Shown here in pieces: positions 4,456 through 61,948 of a stretch of DNA of 64,000 nt. Position 1 is the first letter of the stretch. Every line of letters begins with the position of its first letter. The translations under genes and the position numbers were made by a program. This stretch comes from an uncultured Hormoscilla sp. (GTDB lineage: Bacteria > Cyanobacteriota > Cyanobacteriia > Cyanobacteriales > Desertifilaceae): NCBI GenBank assembly GCA_963921275.4, contig OZ001293.3, positions 6,400,001-6,464,000 of the forward strand, given 5' to 3'. The notes beneath the pieces are model-generated. The model saw only the letters and a list, made by a program, of their open reading frames with translations. It was not told where the DNA came from and did not search any database.

Positions 4456-6142
<1,687 letters not shown>

Positions 6143-6774
6143 ATAATCATCTCTCTAAATTGGCATCTTGTGTGAGAAGCCAGGGCACCAGCGATCGTAA
6201 CGGACTTCTTTAGTTTATCTATATCATCGGTCGTCAGTTATCAGCACCATCCTTCGTCCAGAGGCAATCATGTAGAATCAACAAAAATACTTATTTGCCA
6301 AGGAGCAGCCCCTCCCTAGCTATCCGTCACCAGTTTCTCCATAATTATACCACAATCCCCACAGTTCGATCGTGCTTGGCTGCTTCAGTGAAATTATTGA
6401 TTTCCTCAGGTTTTGACTATATTTGTCTCAGAAATCGGGGATAAAAGACAATTGATAACAATTGGGATTGGCATGTATACTTTGAAAGGTTCAGACGAGT
6501 CAGTATTTAACAAGTTAAGCTATTGGCATGGTATATGTGCGATTCGTTTAGCGTAAACTAACTTGACACAAGTCAAGGAGGGGGACCGCTACCGGGATTT
6601 CGTAAGTCCCGAGAACTTACAGGTGATGGTGGTGAAAGCCCGCCCCTCCAGGTGCAGGAGTGACAGCACCCTCCCCACGGTAGCGATGGCATCAATCCGT
6701 GAAGCGGGAAGGAAAGGCGCTATGGCTGGGAGCCTAGACCGGTCATCGTCGAGCAAGTAACTATGATGAGCGTA

Positions 6775-7609
<835 letters not shown>

Positions 7610-7742
7610 AAGCGAAGGTTTGCAACGTCGTAAAGCCTATCCAGTGTAATAAGGCTGATACACTGGCCCAAAAAGGGAAAGGATACTGGTCATTGGCGGA
7701 TGTATACCCGACCAATAAGCACTGACAATAAACCCGGCGTAG

Positions 7743-8613
7743 GGATGGGGTCGAGCCGGGAATCGCTTCCCGACCCTCCCTTGAGGAACCGGACTTGCGA
7801 TTTTCACCGCATCCGGCTACTGGGTACTAGGCCCTTTTCATAGGTAGACTTAATAGGAATTACTTCCGTTAGCCCTTGCCGCCTGTCTTTTCTTCCCTTT
7901 CCTGGTTTAGCGAGTGGTTGTTCTGATAACCGTTAGTATCACCATTTTCAAGTCAGTTTTACCAGTTATCCATACCTTATCCTCCACTTGCGTTTCGGAT
8001 TAGTTCCGTGGCTTTTTAGGATTACTCATTCCAGCAGCTTCCTAGTATCACCGACCCACGTCAGCGCTGGCTACCCAGCATCATCTACATTACTGTAGAT
8101 GTTATCCCAGGAATTACCCCGGGCATTCGCTTCTTGGGTCATCCCTCCCCCCGTGGCTTGCGCTTAACATCTAACTTGTCCTGATGGACAGCACACGAGA
8201 GGTTACTTCGTTCCCTAACAACATTTCGCGATACCTTTAGGTCCACACTATACCCCGGGAGCTATTTGAGTACTATATTAGCCAGAGTCTAAAACTAATA
8301 CTAGCTACCATTTCCTTTTTAGGCCAGCGCATATAGCCTTATTTCGCTGGTTCCTTATAACGAGGCTTGCACATGTTTGCCTGCTCTAACCTTGGATATC
8401 TTTCCTAGCGGCGTCACCGGCTTAGGCTGCCAGTTATCCTACATTTGAGTCCTCGCTTAGCACCACGATGATGTCGCTTCGTAGCACCGAGGACCGGTGT
8501 CACCCCCGTACCTGGGGGGAGGGGAATTTAACCCCCATGCGGTCAGAGTTCCCGGCTAATGAAACCGGGCTAGCGTTCCGTGTTTGACCACGTTAGGCTA
8601 GAACGAATCGCAC
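7743..8613 (-). mobile_element. ORF-less group II intron, family B, copy B1 (871 nt), antisense in domain I of intron C
   Basis: Reverse complement starts GTGCGATTCGTTCTAGCCT, has DV, ends CTCGACCCCATCC; matches 23952-24822. Confidence 0.93.
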
Positions 8614-10255
8614 AGAACCCGTCTAAGGTTACGACCAATCATCTGTAGGAACGAAGTAACCCGGTTGTAGCACTCTCCATCACCGGTCGATAGATGGAGT
8701 AGCCACCACAGGCGTAACATCTGCTCTCCGGAAGGCAGGACGCAACTGGGGGAGATTGAGTGGAGAAGTAAATGCCTGTCTGTAATGGATAGGATAAGCT
8801 GACGCCCTCACGGTCTCGTCAATTGTGAAGTTGTAAGTAGTAGTGAATATGTCACGGAACTTAGTCGAAAGACAAGAGTATGAATGGAAGACTGTCGCCT
8901 GGCGAAAGCTGGAAAGGATAGTTTTTAAGCTGCAAAAGCGAATTTACAGAGCGGCACTGGAAGGTAATAAGCAGAAGGTTCGTAAGCTCCAAGGATTACT
9001 AAATAGGTCATGGTCCGCGAAGATGATAGCGGTACGGCAGGTAACACAACAAAACCAGGGAAAGAAGACGGCTGGTGTGGATGGTGTGAAAGCACTGACC
9101 CCAAAAGAACGTATCGAACTGGTAGGTCAAATCAAAGTTACTCGAAAGGCGAAGGCAAAAGCCACACGAAGAGTGTGGATACCGAAGCCACGAAGGGAGG
9201 AGAAGCGGCCATTAGGAATACCAACGATGCACGACCGCGCACTTCAGGGATTGGTTAAAGAAGCGCTAGAGCCTGAATGGGAAGCGTATATGGAAGCCAA
9301 TTCCTACGGGTTTAGACCAGGTAGGGGATGTCATGATGCAGTTGCAGCGATATTCGCTAGCATCAGTCAAAAATCGAAATGGGTGTTAGATGCGGATATT
9401 GCGAAGTGTTTCGACGAAATTGACCATTCCGCGCTCCTAAAGAAATTGAATACTACGTCACCAATCCGTAAACAAATACGGGCATGGCTAAAAGCTGGGG
9501 TGATGGACCGGGGAAGGATGGAATCCACAGAAGCCGGAACTCCCCAAGGTGGGGTTATATCTCCATTACTAGCCAATATAGCTTTACATGGGCTGGAAGG
9601 GGTAGTAATGGGTCTCGCTCACACAAAAAGAGAGAAGGAGAAGTTAACCGTAGTAAGATATGCGGATGACTTTGTGGTAATACATAATGACCGGTCGATG
9701 ATTGAGGAAGCTCAAGGAGTGATTGAGGAGTGGTTGAAGGGAATAGGGCTGGAGCAAAAAGCCGAGAAAACGAAGATATCCCACACATTGGAAGGAGAGA
9801 GCCCTGGATTTGACTTCTTAGGGTTCAATATCCGACAATATAAAGTAGGGAAACACAGAAGCGGCAAACTCTGTAACGGAACCCCCCTAGGATTCAAGAC
9901 CCTAATCAAGCCTAGCGATAAATCCATAAGGAATCATAAAGAGCAGCTATCAGAGATAGTTCGCCGCCATAAAGGGGCACCGCAAACGGCCTTAATAGCA
10001 AGACTAAACCCGATGATAAGGGGATGGAGCAACTATTATAGGACGGTGGTAAGTAAAGAAACTTACAGCTCTATGGATAACTACTTATGGAAGTTGTTAT
10101 GGCGATGGGCAAAGAGAAGACATCCTAACAAAACGGGCAAATGGATTGCTAGTAAGTACTGGGGTATGACCGGGAAAGACCGGTGGAGGTTCGCTGGCAA
10201 GTCTAAAGAAGATGGAGGAATGAAGCTAAACCGATACTCTGAAACTGAAATAATC

Positions 10256-11996
10256 GGATGGGGTCGAGCTGGGAATCGCTTCCCGACCCTCCCTTGAGGA
10301 ACCGGACTTGCGATTTTCACCGCATCCGGCTACTGAGTACTAGGCCCTTTTCATAGGTGGATGGGGTCGAGCCGGGAATCGCTTCCCGACCCTCCCTTGA
10401 GGAACCGGACTTGCGATTTTCACCGCATCCGGCTACTGGGTACTAGGCCCTTTTCATAGGTAGACTTAATAGGAATTACTTCCGTTAGCCCTTGCCGCCT
10501 GTCTTTTCTTCCCTTTCCTGGTTTAGCGAGTGGTTGTTCTGATAACCGTTAGTATCACCATTTTCAAGTCAGTTTTACCAGTTATCCATACCTTATCCTC
10601 CACTTGCGTTTCGGATTAGTTCCGTGGCTTTTTAGGATTACTCATTCCAGCAGCTTCCTAGTATCACCGACCCACGTCAGCGCTGGCTACCCAGCATCAT
10701 CTACATTACTGTAGATGTTATCCCAGGAATTACCCCGGGCATTCGCTTCTTGGGCCATCCCTCCCCCCGTGGCTTGCGCTTAACATCTAACTTGTCCTGA
10801 TGGACAGCACACGAGAGGTTACTTCGTTCCCTAACAACATTTCGCGATACCTTTAGGTCCACACTATACCCCGGGAGCTATTTGAGTACTATATTAGCCA
10901 GAGTCTAAAACTAATACTAGCTACCATTTCCTTTTTAGGCCAGCGCATATAGCCTTATTTCGCTGGTTCCTTATAACGAGGCTTGCACATGTTTGCCTGC
11001 TCTAACCTTGGATATCTTTCCTAGCGGCGTCACCGGCTTAGGCTGCCAGTTATCCTACATTTGAGTCCTCGCTTAGCACCACGATGATGTCGCTTCGTAG
11101 CACCGAGGACCGGTGTCACCCCCGTACCTGGGGGGAGGGGAATTTAACCCCCATGCGGTCAGAGTTCCCGGCTAATGAAACCGGGCTAGCGTTCCGTGTT
11201 TGACCACGTTAGGCTAGAACGAATCGCACAGACTTAATAGGAATTACTTCCGTTAGCCCTTGCCGCCTGTCTTTTCTTCCCTTTCCTGGTTTAGCGAGTG
11301 GTTGTTCTGATAACCGTTAGTATCACCATTTTCAAGTCAGTTTTACCAGTTATCCATACCTTATCCTCCACTTGCGTTTCGGATTAGTTCCGTGGCTTTT
11401 TAGGATTACTCATTCCAGCAGCTTCCTAGTATCACCGACCCACGTCAGCGCTGGCTACCCAGCATCATCTACATTACTGTAGATGTTATCCCAGGAATTA
11501 CCCCGGGCATTCGCTTCTTGGGCCATCCCTCCCCCCGTGGCTTGCGCTTAACATCTAACTTGTCCTGATGGACAGCACACGAGAGGTTACTTCGTTCCCT
11601 AACAACATTTCGCGATACCTTTAGGTCCACACTATACCCCGGGAGCTATTTGAGTACTATATTAGCCAGAGTCTAAAACTAATACTAGCTACCATTTCCT
11701 TTTTAGGCCAGCGCATATAGCCTTATTTCGCTGGTTCCTTATAACGAGGCTTGCACATGTTTGCCTGCTCTAACCTTGGATATCTTTCCTAGCGGCGTCA
11801 CTGGCTTAGGCTGCCAGTTATCCTACATTTGAGTCCTCGCTTAGCACCACGATGATGTCGCTTCGTAGCACCGAGGACCGGTGTCACCCCCGTACCTGGG
11901 GGAGGGGAATTTAACCCCCATGCGGTCAGAGTTCCCGGCTAATGAAACCGGGCTAGCGTTCCGCGTTTGACCACGTTAGGCTAGAACGAATCGCAC
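10256..11996 (-). mobile_element. ORF-less intron B2 (outer), antisense in the RT ORF, containing B3
   Basis: 10256-10358 plus 11230-11996 reconstitute an 870-nt B copy with a few substitutions. Confidence 0.92.
10359..11229 (-). mobile_element. ORF-less intron B3 (871 nt) inserted in B2 in the same orientation
   Basis: Complete B copy inserted at ATTAAGTCT|ACCTATGA of B2. Confidence 0.93.
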
Positions 11997-12405
11997 AGAC
12001 ACGTAAAGGTTAAGGGGACAGCTAGCCCGTTTGACGGTAATCTGGTTTATTGGAGCAAAAGACTGAGAAAAAGCCCGGATGTGAGCGCTAGAGTTATCAG
12101 ACTGCTAAAAGAGCAGGATGGTAAGTGTGTGCACTGCGGACTGAAATTCAAAGATGGCGACAAATGGGAGGTTGACCATATTCTACCAGTTTCTAAAGGA
12201 GGTAAAGACTGGTATACCAACCTACAGTTGCTGCATGATTATTGCCATGATGTAAAGTCTGCCAGAGATGGTGACAAAGGCCGTATCCATGACAAGGATG
12301 GCGAAACTGAGGAGCCGGATGAGGTGAAAGTCTCACGTCCGGTTCTGAAGACGAGTCGGCGGGGTGACCCGTTGGCTTAGTTTAATCCATTACACCAAAC
12401 AATCC

Positions 12406-20418: not shown

Positions 20419-21104
20419 AGCCATAGTTAGCACCCTCAGTCTGCTGTATGCTTCTTTTCTATCGATGTCCCCCCCATCTCAGAAGATTGCCAAAGTAGGA
20501 GGTAGAAGGTCGGAGGTTTCAACTAGATCGTCCTTTCGATGCCTACCGTTCCGGGAAAATTGGGATGCAAGGCAGGCAACCTACGATGCCTTCTAATTTT
20601 TCCGGTACGCAGGGCAAAAACCCGGAAGGCATCGCATGCGGGGGCGGCTCGTGGGGCATTGAGATTCCCCCCATTGTGGTAAACTTCAAGTAACCACAGT
20701 GAAATCATCGCTAGTAATCAGGGTCAAATCAATGCGCTGTAGGGTGACCAGGGTGTCCCTTTCAAAGTTAATCAAGGTATCTAGGCCCTGATAGACGTGA
20801 GCCAAATCTACCGTTCCGGAAAAATCGTCCAGCCCGATCGCGTTCAGCCCCGTCCGTATAATCTTCAAAGTCTATGATAGTACCCATCATGTCCGACTCC
20901 AGAACAAAAATATTGGCCTCTGATCCTTCGTAGAGACGATCGCTTCCATGGTTTCCGTAGACGCGATCGCTTCCATGGTTTCCGTAGACGCGATCTCTTC
21001 CTTCCCTGCCGATCAGAGTGTCCTCCTCCTCCTTCTCAAAGAGTGATAAAGTTAGGGGTTGGGGGTTGAGAGTTAGGGATTGACGAGTATTGCTGAAGTT
21101 AAGG

Positions 21105-22870
21105 TCGGTAGGAGAGGAGTTGACATTGTTGACATTAATAGTAAAAGCCTCCGAGTAACTAAGCCCACCAGCATCAGTAGTCTGGACGCGGATGCTGTAA
21201 CTGGACTGGGTCTCAAAGTCAGGGGAACTGTTAATTTGCAGTGAGTTCCCTTCTATGGTGAAGGCGTCGTTATCATCGGCATCAGCGCCTCCGACTAACT
21301 GGTAGGTAAAGGTATCGGAAGAGTCAGGATCGGTAGTTGAGAAAGTCCCTACGACTGCATTATCAGGGGAGTTAGAATCAATGCTGCTGCTGCTAATGAC
21401 TAGGTCGGTAGGAGACTCGCCGACATCGTTGATATTAATAGTCAAGACCTCCTCAAAACTATTACTAGCAGAGTCAGTAGTCTGGACGCGGAGGCTGTAA
21501 CTGGACTGAGTCTCAAAGTCCAAAGAACTGTTAGTTAGCAGTTGGTCCCCTACTATAGTAAAGGCATTGTTGCCCGATCCAAGCATGTAGGTAAAGCTAT
21601 CTCCCTCGTCGGGGTCAGTAGTAGACAAAGTCCCCACAACTGCACCCAATGGAGAGTTAGAATCAATGCTGCTGCTGCTAAGGACTAGGTCGGTAGGAGA
21701 CTCGCCGACATCGTTGACGCTAATAGTCAAGGCTTCTGAGTAACTGTTCCCAGTAGAGTCAGTAGTCTGGACGCCGATGCTGTAACTCGATTTTCTCTCA
21801 AAGTCAGGGGAACTGTTAATTTGCAGTGAGTTCCCTTCTATGGTGAAGGCGTCGTTATCATCGGCACTAGCGCCTCCGACTAATTGGTAGGTAAAGGTAT
21901 CGGAAGAGTCAGGATCGGTAGTTGAGAAAGTCCCTACGACTGCATTATCAGGGGAGTTAGAATCAATGCTGCTGCTGCTAAGGACTAGGTCGGTAGGAGA
22001 CTCGCCGACATCGTTGACATTAATAGTCAAGACCTCCTCAAAACTATTACTAGCAGAGTCAGTAGTCTGGACGCGGAGGCTGTAACTGGACTGAGTCTCA
22101 AAGTCCAAAGAACTGTTAGTTAGCAGTTGGTCCCCTACTATAGTAAAGGCATTGTTGCCCGATCCAAGCATGTAGGTAAAGCTATCTCCCTCGTCGGGGT
22201 CAGTAGTAGACAAAGTCCCCACAACTGCACCCAATGGAGAGTTAGAATCAATGCTGCTGCTGCTAAGGACTAGGTCGGTAGGAGACTCGCCGACATCGTT
22301 GACGCTAATAGTCAAGGCTTCTGAGTAACTGTTCCCAGTAGAGTTAGTAGTCTGGACGCCGATGCTGTAACTCGATTTTCTCTCAAAGTCAGGGGAACTG
22401 TTAATTTGCAGTGAGTTCCCTTCTATGGTGAAGGCGTCGTTATTATCGGCACTAGCGCCTCCGACTAACTGGTAGGTAAAGGTATCGGAAGAGTCAGGAT
22501 CGGTAGTTGAGAAAGTCCCTACGACTGCATTATCAGGGGAGTTAGAATCAATGCTGCTGCTGCTAAGGACTAGGTCGGTAGGAGAGGAGTTGACATTGTT
22601 GACATTAATAGTAAAAGCCTCCGAGTAACTAAGTTCACCAGCATCAGTAGTCTGGACGCGGATGCTGTAACTGGACTGAGTCTCAAAGTCCAAAGAACTG
22701 TTAGTTAGCAGTTGGTCCCCTACTATAGTAAAGGCATTGTTGCCGGAGACAAGCATGTAGGTAAAGCTATCTCCCTCGTTGGGGTCGGTAGTAGAGAAAG
22801 TCCCTACGACTGCACCCAATGGAGAGTTAGAATCAATGCTGCTGTTGCTGAGTTCTAGATCGGTAGGAGG
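21105..22870 (-). repeat. Intragenic cadherin-like repeats, 585-bp period (two alternating domains x3)
   Basis: Same sequence at 21301, 21886 and 22471. Confidence 0.85.
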
Positions 22871-23179
22871 GGAGTTCTCTATAACAATGTCAAAGGTATC
22901 TGTCACTTCAGATTTCGCTCTGTCGATGGCGGTTACCGTCACGGTAAAGGTGTCTGCGGTAGTAGGGATACCGCTGATAACTCTCTGAGAGTTGATCGTT
23001 ACGCCCCCTGGTAAACCGGTAGCTGTGTAATTGTCGATGTTGTTATTGATGTCGCCGAAATTTGCGCTAATGTCTATGTTGAGGTTATTACCTAGCAAGA
23101 GTTGGACGTCGGGAATCTCGGTTAAAACATAAGGGGAGTTTTCCAATCGCTTTGAGGCACTCAAATCTAGAACCTCTTG

Positions 23180-23500
23180 GGGGATGCTGCCAGTCAGTTG
23201 GTTGGAGTCCAGCTGGAGAAACTCCAAATTGGAAAGATTCCCTAACTCCGTCGGGATGCTGCCAGTCAGTCGGTTGTCGGACAGCAAGAGAAACTCCAAA
23301 TTGGAAAGATTCCCTAACTCCGTCGGGATGCTGCCAGTCAGTCGGTTTCTGTCCAGCTGGAGATCCTTCAAATTGGAAAGATTCCCTAACTCCGTCGGGA
23401 TGCTGCCAGTCAGTTGGTTGGAGTTCAGCTGGAGAAGTTGCAAATTAGAAAGATTCCCTAACTCCGTCGGGATGTTGCCAGTCAGTTGGTTGCCGTTCAG
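23180..23500 (-). repeat. Plant-type leucine-rich repeats (72-bp units)
   Basis: LTGSIPTELGNLSNL repeated. Confidence 0.9.
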
Positions 23501-23951
23501 GAAGAGCAAAGTCACCCTGCTGTTAGCTGCTACCCTCACCCCATGCCAATCATTAACAACAAAAGCATCGGGGGGAGTTAGGCTGTCGAAATTCCAGCTA
23601 GCCCAGCCTGTATTGTTACTCCAAGAAGCCCCATTGGTGCTTTGATAGAGAGCCCTTAAGGCATGATACTCCTGCTGGGGGATCAATATGCCCCCATAGG
23701 CCATCTGAGCTTCTGCGGACAATGCTAAGGGAGTTTTCATCCCCGGAGTTCGCCACTCCAACTTCCAATTTCCGCCCCGGGCTGCTGCCCCTGTCCGGGT
23801 AGTAGAGGCGGCGAGGGATGCCCCGGTCAGGGCCTGTAGCTTAGTCATCAACTCCTCTCCTGCATCTCCGGCGGCGACGTTACAGCCGTAGAGTAGGAGT
23901 TGTTTTACTTTCCACTTCTGCAGGGTAGAGGCGTAATCTCCTAGAGGATCT

Positions 23952-24822
23952 GTGCGATTCGTTCTAGCCTAACGTGGTCAAACACGGAACGCTAGCCCGG
24001 TTTCATTAGCCGGGAACTCTGACCGCATGGGGGTTAAATTCCCCTCCCCCCAGGTACGGGGGTGACACCGGTCCTCGGTGCTACGAAGCGACATCATCGT
24101 GGTGCTAAGCGAGGACTCAAATGTAGGATAACTGGCAGCCTAAGCCGGTGACGCCGCTAGGAAAGATATCCAAGGTTAGAGCAGGCAAACATGTGCAAGC
24201 CTCGTTATAAGGAACCAGCGAAATAAGGCTATATGCGCTGGCCTAAAAAGGAAATGGTAGCTAGTATTAGTTTTAGACTCTGGCTAATATAGTACTCAAA
24301 TAGCTCCCGGGGTATAGTGTGGACCTAAAGGTATCGCGAAATGTTGTTAGGGAACGAAGTAACCTCTCGTGTGCTGTCCATCAGGACAAGTTAGATGTTA
24401 AGCGCAAGCCACGGGGGGAGGGATGGCCCAAGAAGCGAATGCCCGGGGTAATTCCTGGGATAACATCTACAGTAATGTAGATGATGCTGGGTAGCCAGCG
24501 CTGACGTGGGTCGGTGATACTAGGAAGCTGCTGGAATGAGTAATCCTAAAAAGCCACGGAACTAATCCGAAACGCAAGTGGAGGATAAGGTATGGATAAC
24601 TGGTAAAACTGACTTGAAAATGGTGATACTAACGGTTATCAGAACAACCACTCGCTAAACCAGGAAAGGGAAGAAAAGACAGGCGGCAAGGGCTAACGGA
24701 AGTAATTCCTATTAAGTCTACCTATGAAAAGGGCCTAGTACCCAGTAGCCGGATGCGGTGAAAATCGCAAGTCCGGTTCCTCAAGGGAGGGTCGGGAAGC
24801 GATTCCCGGCTCGACCCCATCC
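23952..24822 (+). mobile_element. ORF-less group II intron B4 (871 nt), antisense to its host gene
   Basis: GTGCG...DV...CTCGACCCCATCC; removal restores the host frame. Confidence 0.93.
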
Positions 24823-46253: not shown

Positions 46254-48716
46254 TTAAAGTCTACGCCAGCGCCGACCATCTCGATTTAAGAGAAATTCTG
46301 CTTCCACAGGTTCCCAGGTTCCTGCTTCATAAAGAGGAATCGCCTCCGGAGGGGCCGGGGCATCCCAAACTTCCAACAGAGGAGTGAGTACCTGCCAGGA
46401 AGCTTCCACTTCATCTCCTCGGGTGAACAGAGTCTGGTCTCCTAACATGCAATCTATCAGCAGACGACTGTAGGCATCCGTGTTTGGTTTACCAAAAGCC
46501 GTATCGTAACGAAAATCCATATCCACCGATCGGGTGCGCAGGGAATTACCCGGAGTTTTCACCTCAAACCGCATAGAAATCCCTTCATTGGGCTGAATTC
46601 GCAGAGCCAAAACATTAGGATTCATCTGTTTCGCCGCCGACTGGAACATCATATACGGCACTTCTTTGAACTGGATGGCGATTTCCGTTACCTTCTTGGG
46701 CATCCGCTTACCCGTGCGCAGATAAAAAGGCACTCCCTTCCAGCGCCAGTTGGTCGGGGTCGAGCTGGGAATCACTCCCCAACCCTCCCTTTCGGAACCG
46801 GACTTGCGACTTTCACCGCATCCGGCTACTGGTTGGTAAGCTGTTGTCATCAGTAGGATTATTGGGTTACCCCGTATTCCCCTTACCCTCTGTAATTTTA
46901 CCCCTTATGGTCAATCCTATTGGACCGTTAATGATTTCAGCTCCGGAAGGTATGCGCTGCGCGCACGCTGCGCGATCGCGGAGGGTAGTTCAGCAAACCA
47001 TTCTAGCCGCTCTTCTCTAACATTTCCCCATTCTGGCAATTTATCGGGGCTCTGAACTTTACCCGGCTGAGACTCTAGTCCATATTCATACTTTTGGATT
47101 TCTCCTAAGTTTTGCGACGTGTTAGGGCTACTTTCACCAAAGGCTTCTTACCATATCCGTCCTACGTCTGCATATCCCAGGCATTACCCCAGGCGTTGGC
47201 TTCTTAGAACATCCTTCCTCTTCGCGGCTTGCGCTTTACATCTAACTGGTCCAAATGGGGACAGCTCACGTGAGGTTACTTCGTTCCCTGGTATCATTTC
47301 TCGATGCTTTTAGGTTCCTGCTATACCCCGGGAGTTCTTCGAGTGCGATGCTGGTAAGCAAATACTACCAACACTAACTGCCATTTCCCTTTTGGGCCAG
47401 CGTATAAGCCTTATTCCGCTGGTTCTTATTAACGAGGCTTTCACAGGTTCGCTTGTTCTAACCATGAGCATCTTTCCTAGCGGTGTCACTAGCTTAGGCT
47501 GCTAGCTATCCTACATTTAAGTCCTAGCTCCGCACCACGGCGATGTGACTCCGCAGCACTAAGGACCGGTGTTACCCCCACACCTGGGGAGAGGGAATTT
47601 AACCCCCATGATAACCAGAGTTATCCGGCAAATGAAACCAGACCAGACTTCACCGTCGCCAGTTTACGCCTGAACGAATCGCACATCTACATATAACTTC
47701 AAAGCTGCATAAGTGGGAGTAGTTGTATTGGGATCGGCCCCCTCTTCTTCCCGATAGCCCGGCACTTGCTTGCCATTCATCCAACCCGCCGTGTATTGAC
47801 CCCGAATGGCCGATCGATCCAAATTTTCCAAATCTGCTAGGTGCGTCGCCTGGACAACTTTTACCTTTTCACTCCGAATGCTGTCAGCATCCAAGCCGTT
47901 CGGCGGTTCCATTGCTGTCAGACAAAACAGTTGCATCAGGTGATTTTGCACCATGTCCCGCAAGGCCCCAGAGGATTCGTAATAACCTGCCCGCCCTTCT
48001 AGACCTACCTTTTCCGCCACTGTGATTTGCACGTGATCGACAAACTGACGATTCCACAGGGGTTCAAAAATCGCATTGGCAAACCGAAACACTAACAAAT
48101 TCTGCACCGTTTCTTTGCCCAGGTAATGGTCGATACGGTAAATCTGCTCTTCCGCACATACCTGACGCACGATCTGATTCAGCACTTGGGCCGATCCCAG
48201 GTCTCGACCAAAAGGTTTTTCGATTACTAGCCGCTGCTTTCTGGGATCCCGAAGCATTCCGACACTTCCCAGTTGCTGGGTAGCTTCTCCAAAGAATCGG
48301 GGTGCCACAGATAGGTAAAATACCCGATTCCCTCGCGTACCTCGTTGTTCGTCTAGTTCCCCCAAGAATGCTTTCAGCTTCTGGTAGCTTTCCGGTTTGT
48401 CAATGTCCCCAGAACAATAGAATAGCCCTTTAGCAAATCGCGACCAGATTTCTTCTCTACCCAGTCCACCGCCAAACTCTTCCACTCCTATCCGCATCTG
48501 TTTGCGGAAATAATCGTGACTCCAGTCTCGTCGCGCCACCCCCACGATCGTCAGTTCTGGGGGCAGTTTGTGCTCTAACATCATCTGATAGAGGGCGGGA
48601 ACGAGCTTTCTCTGGGTTAAGTCCCCAGATGCACCGAATATTACCAGAATTTGCGGTTCTGGCATCCGGTCATGTTGCAGTCCCACTCGTAAGGGATTTT
48701 CCAATAGCGTTACCAT
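46254..48716 (-). CDS. zwf: Glucose-6-phosphate dehydrogenase split by sense intron D (join 48716-47685 + 46751-46254, 509 aa)
   Basis: [15 protein letters not shown]; junction [21 protein letters not shown]. Confidence 0.95.
46752..47684 (-). mobile_element. ORF-less group II intron D (933 nt), sense within zwf
   Basis: GTGCGATTCGTTCAGG...DV...CTCGACCCCGACC; putative EBS1 AUUUGC (47363-47358) pairs 6/6 (two G-U) with exon end GTAGAT. Confidence 0.93.
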
Positions 48717-57250: not shown

Positions 57251-58564
<1,314 letters not shown>

Positions 58565-59347: not shown

Positions 59348-61948
59348 ATGGCTATATTCAATGTTAGTACAGAAGCAGAACTCTCCCAAGCCATTACCGA
59401 TTCCAGGAATAATGGTATGTCAGATACCATTAACATCATGGGAGATATTACCCTGACCGGGTTGCTACCTCATATTGAAGAAGACGTCGGTCTCACGATA
59501 GAAGGAGACAACAACGTCATTGATGGCAACAACCAACACCGGCTGTTCTTTGTCCTCGACGGTAAAGTCAATTTCAACGAGCTGATCTTTAGGAACGGCC
59601 GGGCCCAGGGAGGTAATGGCGTCAGCGGAGCAGCAGGCATGGGCGGTGCCCTGTTTATCTATGACGGGACCATCACTGCGACCAATAGCACTTTCGAGAA
59701 TAATAGCGCCATTGGTGGCGACGCCGATTGCATCATCAAGATTGATTCTGCACTATCTAGTGGCAGTCTAGTAGGTGGTAATGCTAACTTTATCACTCCT
59801 ATTCCTGCTAATGATGGCGACGACGGCAAGGACGGCAGCGAGGACGGCGAGGACGGCGATTTCGGCGGCAACGGCGGCGACGGCAGCAGCTTCGGCGACG
59901 GCGGCGACGGCGGCTTTGGCGGCAACGGCGGCAACGGCGGCTTTATAGACTTTTGCGGCGGCCGCCGCTGCGGCTTTGGCGGCGGCGGCAGCAGCGGCAA
60001 CGGCGGCTTCGGCGGCTTCGGCGGCGGGGGCGGCATCGGCAACGGCGGCGGCGGCGGCTGCTTTGGCGGCGGCGACGGCAGCGACAACTTTGGCGGCCGC
60101 GGCGCGGGCATGGGCTCCGCCATATTCATTCGCTCAGGCACACTTGAGATTTCCAACAGCAGTTTTAACAGCAATATCGCCTTTGGTGGCACTGGCTATA
60201 ACTCCGGCCAAGGTCTGGGGGGCGCCATATTCGCCCTGCACCGCCTCACCAATACCAACGGGAACAACCAAGGCATGCCCGACGCTCTGCCGACCGTACT
60301 CTTTAGAAATAACCTAGAGTTCTCGGGTAATATAGCCGGAAACGTAAATGGAAATACCATAGACCTTAATAATATGGATGGGGTCGAGCCGGGAATCGCT
60401 TCCCGACCCTCCCTTGAGGAACCGGACTTGCGATTTTCACCGCATCCGGCTACTGGGTACTAGGCCCTTTTCATAGGTAGACTTAATAGGAATTACTTCC
60501 GTTAGCCCTTGCCGCCTGTCTTTTCTTCCCTTTCCTGGTTTAGCGAGTGGTTGTTCTGATAACCGTTAGTATCACCATTTTCAAGTCAGTTTTACCAGTT
60601 ATCCATACCTTATCCTCCACTTGCGTTTCGGATTAGTTCCGTGGCTTTTTAGGATTACTCATTCCAGCAGCTTCCTAGTATCACCGACCCACGTCAGCGC
60701 TGGCTACCCAGCATCATCTACATTACTGTAGATGTTATCCCAGGAATTACCCCGGGCATTCGCTTCTTGGGCCATCCCTTGAGGAACCGGACTTGCGATT
60801 TTCACCGCATCCGGCTACTGGGTACTAGGCCCTTTTCATAGGTAGACTTAATAGGAATTACTTCCGTTAGCTCTTGCCGCCTGTCTTTTCTTCCCTTTCC
60901 TGGTTTAGCGAGTGGTTGTTCTGATAACCGTTAGTATCACCATTTTCAAGTCAGTTTTACCAGTTATCCATACCTTATCCTCCACTTGCGTTTCGGATTA
61001 GTTCCGTGGCTTTTTAGGATTACTCATTCCAGCAGCTTCCTAGTATCACCGACCCACGTCAGCGCTGGCTACCCAGCATCATCTACATTACTGTAGATGT
61101 TATCCCAGGAATTACCCCGGGCATTCGCTTCTTGGGCCATCCCTCCCCCCGTGGCTTGCGCTTAACATCTAACTTGTCCTGATGGACAGCACACGAGAGG
61201 TTACTTCGTTCCCTAACAACATTTCGCGATACCTTTAGGTCCACACTATACCCCGGGAGCTATTTGAGTACTATATTAGCCAGAGTCTAAAACTAATACT
61301 AGCTACCATTTCTTTTTTAGGCCAGCGCATATAGCCTTATTTCGCTGGTTCCTTATAACGAGGCTTGCACATGTTTGCCTGCTCTAACCTTGGATATCTT
61401 TCCTAGCGGCGTCACCGGCTTAGGCTGCCAGTTATCCTACATTTGAGTCCTCGCTTAGCACCACGATGATGTCGCTTCGTAGCACCGAGGACCGGTGTCA
61501 CCCCCGTACCTGGGGGGAGGGGAATTTAACCCCCATGCGGTCAGAGTTCCCGGCTAATGAAACCGGGCTAGCGTTCCGTGTTTGACCACGTTAGGCTAGA
61601 ACGAATCGCACAGACTCCATTGGGTTAACAGGAGAAGATGAGAGGAACCTACTTGTCGGCGGCAGTGGAAATGATACCCTGATCGGCGGAAGCCGAGGAG
61701 ACTACCTTATCGGAGGAGAGGACGCCGATATTTTTGTTCTGAGGCCAACCACGGGTGCGGATCTCATCGTAGACTTTGAAAATGGCACGGACTTGATACG
61801 GCTAGCAGAAAGTTTGAGTTTCAATGATTTGGAAATCGTCCCTCAGGGCCAAAACACAGTGATTAACTATGAAGAGAAAACCATGGCCACTTTGTGGGGG
61901 ATTAATTCAATCCTGATTAATAGCGATGATTTTGCCATGGTAAATTGA
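59348..61948 (+). pseudogene. Gly-rich secreted protein with RTX tail, interrupted by antisense intron B5 (join 59348-60375 + 61612-61948, 454 aa)
   Basis: Joined ...DLNN I DSIGLTG...GGSGNDTLIGG...GGEDADIFVL...DLIVDFENGTD...DDFAMVN*. Confidence 0.85.
60376..61611 (-). mobile_element. ORF-less intron B5 with a 365-bp internal tandem duplication (1236 nt)
   Basis: 60415-60779 is repeated at 60780-61144. Confidence 0.92.

Follow-up and report, generated by a model that had tools for sequence, protein, structure and literature searches.

Group II introns of the window

The window, by which we mean the whole stretch of 64,000 nt of an uncultured Hormoscilla sp. that was analysed, holds several group II introns. 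At positions 10256 to 11996 one copy of the ORF-less intron B sits inside another, and the pair lies within the reverse transcriptase (RT) reading frame of a third, RT-coding intron, C. The features discussed below are as follows.

5275..6109, plus strand: intron A1, ending GACT
6537..12386, plus strand: intron C, an RT-coding IIB2 intron of 2403 nt with a 600-aa ORF once its inserts are removed
6775..7609, plus strand: intron A2, inside intron C, ending GACT, with empty alleles
7743..8613, minus strand: a copy of intron B (B8k), inside intron C, ending ATCC, with empty alleles
10256..11996, minus strand: outer intron B, ORF-less IIB2, 870 nt plus insert, ending CTCG-A-CCCC-ATCC, lying antisense within intron C's RT ORF, with an exact empty allele elsewhere in the genome
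10256..10264, minus strand: outer B from its presumed branch A (10264) to its last nucleotide (10256), A-CCCC-ATCC
10359..11229, minus strand: the inner copy of intron B, 871 nt, occupying the target that B carries internally, ATTAAGTCT|ACCTATGA
10359..10367, minus strand: inner B from its presumed branch A (10367) to its last nucleotide (10359)
10758..10760, minus strand: J2/3 of inner B (G-G-A), with gamma at G10760, which pairs with the terminal C (from sequence and covariation)
10866, minus strand: EBS3 (U) of inner B, where the GGGGTA[N]AG column covaries with exon +1; the equivalent in outer B is 11634
11526..11528, minus strand: J2/3 of outer B, with gamma at G11528 (from sequence and covariation)
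23952..24822, plus strand: a copy of intron B (B24k), ending ATCC, with an empty self-target at 24711-24727
46254..48716, minus strand: zwf (glucose-6-phosphate dehydrogenase), single-copy, exons 48716-47685 and 46751-46254, 509 aa when joined
46752..47684, minus strand: intron D, 933 nt, on the sense strand of zwf, ending GACC
57546..58379, plus strand: intron A3, ending GACT, with an empty allele
60376..61611, minus strand: a copy of intron B (B61k) with a 365-nt internal tandem duplication, ending ATCC

Without its insert, the outer B agrees with B24k at 866 of 870 nucleotide positions, and the inner B is identical to that copy throughout (871 of 871) and likewise ends CTCG-A-CCCC-ATCC. The putative branch A of the outer B, at 10264, was assigned from homology and folding. 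B24k itself is antisense in an adhesin-like gene with cadherin, LRR and calcium repeats (20768-23851), and antisense insertions of this kind are not spliceable from the host mRNA. As the earlier note had proposed, the empty self-target within B fixes both ends of the intron, although it lies at 24711-24727 and not at 24710-24726. This target is found just upstream of domain V; five copies occupy it in the genome and 142 sites are empty, and intron A has an internal target as well (1 filled, 75 empty). The 365-nt duplication in B61k is bounded by the self-target motif and is not a full nested intron. Intron C carries four ORF-less introns (A2, B8k, outer B and inner B). The site of the outer B, in the RT/En region of C, is filled in at least six further C copies, and through this repeated filling the passengers therefore disable their probable helper.

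With respect to class, the lineage introns have the 5' start GUGCGAUUCG, EBS1/EBS3 and a CG-A branch motif, and possibly additional stem-loops in the basal part of domain I, in common with the cyanobacterial IIB2 introns (CL2) described in Table S3 of Monachello 2021 (PMC8643678) and by Costa 2022 (PMC9294222). The Rfam model RF00029, with its domain V bearing the AGC triad and its domain VI, exceeded the gathering score at each of the nine lineage ends of the window, and it matched intron C too. Empty sites and EBS1 covariation place the 5' boundary at GUGYG, the lineage introns carry the 5' consensus GUGCGAUUC that is given for subgroup IIB2 (CL2) in PMC4649490, and the EBS3-IBS3 pairing with exon +1 that characterises subgroup IIB is present in 21 of 24 families. 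Two hairpin-like segments, seen by eye in the unfolded alignment, may correspond to a IIB2 feature described in PMC8643678. With class D/IIB3 introns of the RmInt1 type the lineage has the CC end alone in common, and its 5' end points to IIB2. The lineage introns are ORF-less; a quick tree, built without CL1, CL2A and CL2B references, places the RTs of their long-spacer relatives among published IIB2 RTs. In all lineage copies domain V starts with AGTAGCC and not GAGAGCC (for instance at 10298-10334 of the window), with the lowest pairs mismatched, and this arrangement is common to four RT-coding relatives (L002, L004, L007 and L012).

The genome, of 7.03 Mb, is rich in GCGATCGC, which we take to be the cyanobacterial HIP1 motif; one contig of 31,420 nt (C3), with 17.6% GC and without GCGATCGC, is unlike the chromosome and probably foreign to the genome. 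We counted 300 lineage 3' ends, 276 of which could be paired with a 5' end, and 59 C-type ends. Un-nested copies of 700-1150 nt (n = 250) fall into 24 families, the largest contributions coming from B (137 copies) and A (72). Intron depth in four DNA-like sequencing runs (X6-X9), which may be the source sample, reaches about 200 times that of the flanks, which are flat, so the high copy number is not an assembly artefact. For comparison, the maximum number of group II introns per genome given in Miura 2022 (PMC8919778) is 101, and 'at least 150' are mentioned for Arthrospira in PMC4649490; three genomes of the same genus contain between 65 and 127 matches each to the end pattern.

Where the 3' splice site lies

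The earlier note had placed the GACT, ATCC and GACC ends 9 nt from the presumed branch A, that is, behind an 8-nt spacer, and at the DNA level this position is real and well supported by both empty sites and host reading frames. Exact 28-nt empty junctions were found for 51 of the 250 copies with the 9-nt end. Placing the end at 6, 7, 8, 10 or 11 nt was rejected, as it gave zero exact empty sites in 250 copies; a boundary one base further to the left, in which the intron would begin with the preceding exon base, was rejected because the flanking and terminal bases that the empty sites require are mismatched. The junctions amount to 28 distinct ones, six of which adjoin another intron and are not true empties. 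The other 22 are true empty sites that span ATCC, GACT and GACC ends and include those of outer B, inner B, A2, A3, B8k and B24k.

Host reading frames agree with this placement. Sixty open codons on each side of the junction were obtained for 77 of 250 copies at 9 nt, against 16, 18 and 20 at 7, 8 and 10 nt; 46 of the 250 copies are found within an open frame on the sense strand. When ends at 7, 8, 9 and 10 nt were compared in the window, the host frame was open at 9 nt alone for A3, B24k, B61k and the outer B, and the frame of zwf, which had been predicted to be restored only with D at this end, was indeed recovered (as VDNW) at 9 nt alone. A similar prediction for the hosts of A1 and A3 was borne out for A3, where a cut at AC leads to TAC|TAA; for A1 the frame gives weak evidence: with the 9-nt end a Met is reached 12 codons upstream, and with the 8-nt end a stop lies 6 codons upstream, off the junction. 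The ends of B8k, inner B and A2 are set by empty alleles and not by frame. Excising A2, B8k and the outer B at their 9-nt ends leaves the 2403-nt intron C with its 600-aa ORF, gapless against uninterrupted genomic copies.

Contigs from four RNA libraries (X1-X4, all from relatives only) skip exactly 46752-47684, the 933 nt of intron D, without ambiguity. Since they differ from the window at about 4 to 6 letters in 100, these contigs may be intron-less alleles of relatives, and they fix the junction, not splicing. No joint across D occurred in the DNA-like runs X6-X9, and one search of sequencing runs returned no RNA run with more than 15% of the words. Neither a spliced read nor a lariat or branch site turned up in these data.

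Conservation of the ends stops after the ninth position: the last base is a pyrimidine in 296 of 300 ends, while exon +1 is A in 205, G in 42, T in 31 and C in 22. The terminal dinucleotides depart from the AY consensus (CC 162, CT 104, AT 28, other 6), and the departure concerns position -2, which is C in 267 ends, A in 30 and T in 3. AY is a consensus with known exceptions and not a strict criterion. The suggestion that the lineage never ends in AY did not hold, given the 28 AT ends at the same spacing. If the A is taken as the branch point, the spacer is 8 nt long, outside the 6 or 7 nt of the rule. Intron C, as noted earlier, has the usual 8 nt from the branch A and an AT end (A-GTTT-AAT, normal spacing).

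Pairings at the 3' splice site

The two pairings known to define the 3' splice site, gamma-gamma' and EBS3-IBS3 (PMC9294222), could both be followed across the copies. Taking gamma as the nucleotide before GA in J2/3, we found G-C in 148 copies, A-T in 94, a mismatch in 3 and no score in 5 (n = 250). The last base is thus Watson-Crick paired in 242 of the 245 scored copies. By family the counts are 7 G-C, 15 A-T and 2 unscored, and of all alignment columns it is gamma that most often forms a Watson-Crick pair with the last base (23 of 24 families). Ending the intron one base earlier would set C against gamma-A in 85 copies. The family-level association (Fisher p = 5.9e-6) overstates the case because families are related; on the tree gamma changes four times, and starred branches force only one of these changes.

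One column of the GGGGTA[N]AG loop is complementary to exon +1 in the 21 families mentioned above, against 17 for the best of 200 shuffles, and this covariation identifies it as EBS3. EBS1 columns match exon positions -3 to -6 in 16-20 of 24 families, with shuffle maxima of 14-15. Taken together, the covariation of gamma and EBS3 places the usual pairings of the 3' splice site at the long end. The Y of AY has its homologue in the last base, and the features that have changed are the base at -2 and the distance to the branch motif. Of the proposal that the 3' site has shifted by one, the added distance stands; the notion of a site that slid past AY does not, as the last base is the true gamma-prime partner and position -2 is substituted.

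Two separable traits and their distribution

The change of the penultimate A to C and the extra C after the branch A are two separate traits. By analogy with RmInt1, the penultimate C would be a tolerated substitution and not a moved splice site; the additional nucleotide lies internally, in the C run after the branch A. AT-ending families of this genome have the long spacer, and since the 28 AT ends among 300 and RT-coding introns ending AAY share the spacing, the spacer trait is not tied to ORF loss. The earlier view of the trait as specific to the ORF-less lineage thus has to be abandoned, as RT-coding cyanobacterial IIB2 introns have the long spacer too.

A scan of named genomes with a domain V motif gave at least 48 loci. 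Among the matches listed, all 21 Hormoscilla loci read A-CCCC-NNNY, and 26 of the 27 loci from other genera read CG-A-YYY-TNNC, with the 8-nt distance. A TACC end was found in 17 of these 26 (again among the matches listed), including RT-coding introns of Coleofasciculus, Allocoleopsis and Anabaena, whose ends are based on conservation between copies and not on empty sites. Published introns provide similar cases: two copies of an A. variabilis IIB2 intron end CG-A-CTTC-ATC, which is not AY and agrees with the host frame, and of 4 of the 21 introns in Table S3 of PMC8643678, three end in TC and one in AC at the published coordinate. A penultimate base other than A thus has precedent and is frequent in IIB2. 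For N.sp.I4 (L090, NC_003273.1 45422-47908) the end as published, GGCATC, implies a 6-nt spacer and is followed by C; its GCC/GGC helix and gamma G fit one C later too, and its flanks fit either ATC or ATCC.

Across the order, the long-spacer motif occurs in 52 of 401 genomes and 21 of 142 genera, and a reversed control gave 0. Outside the genus Hormoscilla these ends read TAAT or TAAC with five exceptions among the matches listed. An RT frame lies upstream in 14 of 30 fetched long-spacer loci, many others being cut by contig ends, and full-length RT-coding long-spacer introns of 2350-2615 nt, ending CCCC-TAAT or CCCC-TAAC, are present in seven genomes, one of which (G092) has two copies of equal length with different flanks. 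The gamma base in the RT-coding introns is A for U ends (four introns) and G for C ends; the regular expression for gamma missed or mis-hit several of these loci, and the four were re-read by eye. An 834-nt ORF-less long-spacer intron with a TAAC end lies on a Chondrocystis plasmid. In another family, three loci of one genome (L106-L108 in G329) have ends, CCCC-GACC and CCCC-GAAC, that are nearly identical to those of the lineage; for L106 an open host frame results at 9 nt alone, and a transfer is possible.

A quick RNA tree of 50 rows requires two changes of spacer type and places 35 of 38 long-spacer rows, seven of them RT-coding, on one side of a branch with support 94. The ORF-less families of this genome group with Hormoscilla ones on the long-spacer side, adjoining RT-coding long-spacer introns, which suggests that the extra C probably predates the loss of the ORF; the quick trees leave three long-spacer RT introns apart from the main group. 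Among the 108 RT loci of this genome we found no RT-coding intron with the lineage end, and five rows in which that end comes right behind RT fragments were read collectively as nested insertions. In the literature searched, which did not extend to subscription papers or the Calgary database, no paper deals with an 8-nt spacer or with Hormoscilla introns, and the sole match to '8-nt spacer' concerns a 5' end in the text of PMC4024640. Some curated IIB2 entries may carry an 8-nt spacer unremarked, and the Microcystis introns of Table S3 (2613-2620 nt), close in length to a long-spacer intron of 2615 nt (L103), may already hold the trait. The non-AY end is thus a known kind of exception, and the 8-nt spacer appears to be new within IIB2.

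Discussion

Several known systems resemble the lineage in part. RmInt1 of Sinorhizobium meliloti (class D/IIB3; Chillon 2014, PMC4238363) also ends in CC, with a gamma G that pairs with the last C, and its C-to-A change at -2 is reported there to splice like the wild type. RmInt1 is, however, of another class and RT-coding, and its CC end is called nearly unique in that paper, whereas CC or CT terminates 266 of 300 ends here. The Bacillus introns B.c.I4, with a 53/56-nt 3' extension, and B.a.I2, with an alternative site at +4, are similar in that gamma-gamma' and EBS3-IBS3 set a non-standard distance (PMC1865049, PMC9294222), but they rely on a folded extra domain or an alternative site, while here a single added base is fixed throughout a whole sublineage. 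ORF-less, multi-copy introns with related RT-coding introns in the same genome are described, as found here, for the IIB1 introns of T. elongatus and for the dnaN and RIR introns of Trichodesmium (PMC8643678, PMC12584367); the present lineage differs in being IIB2 and in its roughly 300 copies, and the 3' ends of the Trichodesmium introns lie outside this comparison. Finally, published IIB2 introns are described with a 7-nt spacer and no strand shift, and the lineage has an 8-nt spacer with a CCCC run that permits two registers.

The reading that we favour, and consider rather probable as a joint explanation, is that of ORF-less IIB2 introns with an 8-nt end, whose extra C was inherited from RT-coding relatives and is accommodated as the branch helix slips by one base. 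The branch point would be the invariant A within CUCG-A-CCCC: sister introns have the same motif at the standard distance and there is no A at -7 or -8, the A itself being present in 300 of 300 ends, partly by virtue of the search pattern. The introns would splice and retrohome as lariats, as the precise ends of the filled and empty pairs suggest, with an RT supplied in trans by C-type introns. The genome having no RT-coding intron with the lineage end among those examined, C-type introns are the probable source of the enzyme; a quick tree groups their RTs with those of long-spacer introns (support 98). During branching, the GGG of the 5' strand is hypothesised to pair with C1-C3, leaving a 1-nt bulge; during exon ligation it would pair with C2-C4, leaving a bulge of 2 nt (A-C). 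In a bulge of that size the branch A is joined by the nucleotide on its 3' side. The second register would leave a GGG/CCC helix and a 4-nt tail, which is the geometry of a normal-spacer IIB2 intron. A shift from a 1-nt to a 2-nt bulge between the two steps is described by Costa 2022 (PMC9294222) for 7-nt-spacer introns of other subgroups, and IIB2 introns with a 7-nt segment are said there to be unable to strand-shift.

The two registers are predicted to differ by 0.6-0.7 kcal/mol in five long-spacer domains VI, against 3.4 in one normal-spacer domain VI, and the four bases left free read CCCC in all but two or three of about 130 intron-like matches (among the matches listed). Normal-spacer IIB2 helices vary with compensation (GAG/CTC, GAAG/CTTC); among the matches listed, the long-spacer introns yielded no compensated helix variants, and the loose pattern used gives chance hits too. 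Against the slip, it should be said that any GGG/CCCC run gives two registers, and the proposal leans on nearest-neighbour energies and a lack of variation, of which the CCCC invariance may reflect common descent. The base before GGG, set against the first tail base as a test of register, showed no consistent pattern (U-G, A-G, A-A, C-U). In families F3, F4 and F17 the basal 5' strand of domain VI is TGG instead of GGG, so that either register keeps two pairs, or four if a 3-nt bulge is allowed.

A possible, if less likely, alternative retains the same boundaries and branch A and dispenses with movement: the helix would stay in register 1 (GGG/C1-C3, with C4 and the base before GGG facing each other unpaired), its 5-nt tail looping out one base while gamma-gamma' and EBS3-IBS3 draw the splice site into the active site. 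Register 1 is indeed the more stable by the 0.6-0.7 kcal/mol given above, the GAAG/CTTC helix of the published A. variabilis intron fixes it as the homologous pairing, the spacer is described as flexible by Costa 2022 (PMC9294222), and IIB splice sites 3 or 4 nt past domain VI are reported by Stabell 2007 (PMC1865049). A static tail does, however, leave unexplained the near-constancy of the fourth base (C in 298 of 300 ends) beside the variation of the two tail positions that follow it, and the absence of compensated helix variants among the matches listed. Taken as a bare choice between a slip and a passively looped tail, we regard the matter as roughly even.

Two further readings were weighed. 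One holds that the A at 9 nt goes unused, the introns relying on hydrolysis, circles or another branch nucleotide, and that the long spacer is a relic. The basal helix of 3 bp speaks for it, as efficient branching of O.i.I1 needs 4 bp (PMC4748821), and so does a report that no lariat or circle was amplified for the IIB2 intron Tr.e.I7 (PMC4649490); we nevertheless hold it to be improbable, since C occupies positions -8 and -7 in 299 of 300 ends and leaves no other A for the purpose, since 51 filled and empty pairs are exact at both ends and it is the lariat that reverse-splices completely and faithfully (PMC12584367), and since multi-copy RT-coding introns have the same end. Still less credible, to the point of being very improbable, is a lineage-specific 3' site that arose in the ORF-less family by moving one base downstream from a canonical AY. 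An AC is indeed present at the usual distance in GAC|T and GAC|C, and RF00029 ends there, but families ending ATCC or TAAT lack an AY at the 8-nt position, the ninth base is the partner of gamma, and AAY lies at 9 nt in the RT-coding relatives.

Returning to the slip, the wider picture that we put forward tentatively, and would rate at somewhat below an even chance, is that of a widespread and unremarked IIB2 sublineage in which the acquisition of one C behind the branch A also brought a GGG/CCCC slip switch, making a natural, mobile ribozyme with an 8-nt spacer, of which an ORF-less offshoot relaxed its tail and reached hundreds of copies.

The CC or CU end by itself is a minor and precedented variation. 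The spacer has practical consequences for annotation: rule-based ends come 1-2 nt too early (for RF00029, at 46753, 6108 and 10258), and interrupted genes, such as the single-copy zwf, consequently look frameshifted. The distance from branch point to 3' splice site has been treated as a fixed 6 or 7 nt (PMC4748821, PMC9294222), and in the model intron O.i.I1 exon ligation was nearly lost when a pair was added to domain VI, which takes the spacer from 6 to 7 nt (PMC4748821). A mobile lineage with 8 nt, together with sister introns that differ from it by one base, offers a clean natural experiment on the transfer of the 3' splice site to the active site by domain VI, and the same comparison also tests the strand-shift model. 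If our reading is true, the slip switch would sit in the one 7-nt subgroup that has been reported without strand shifting.
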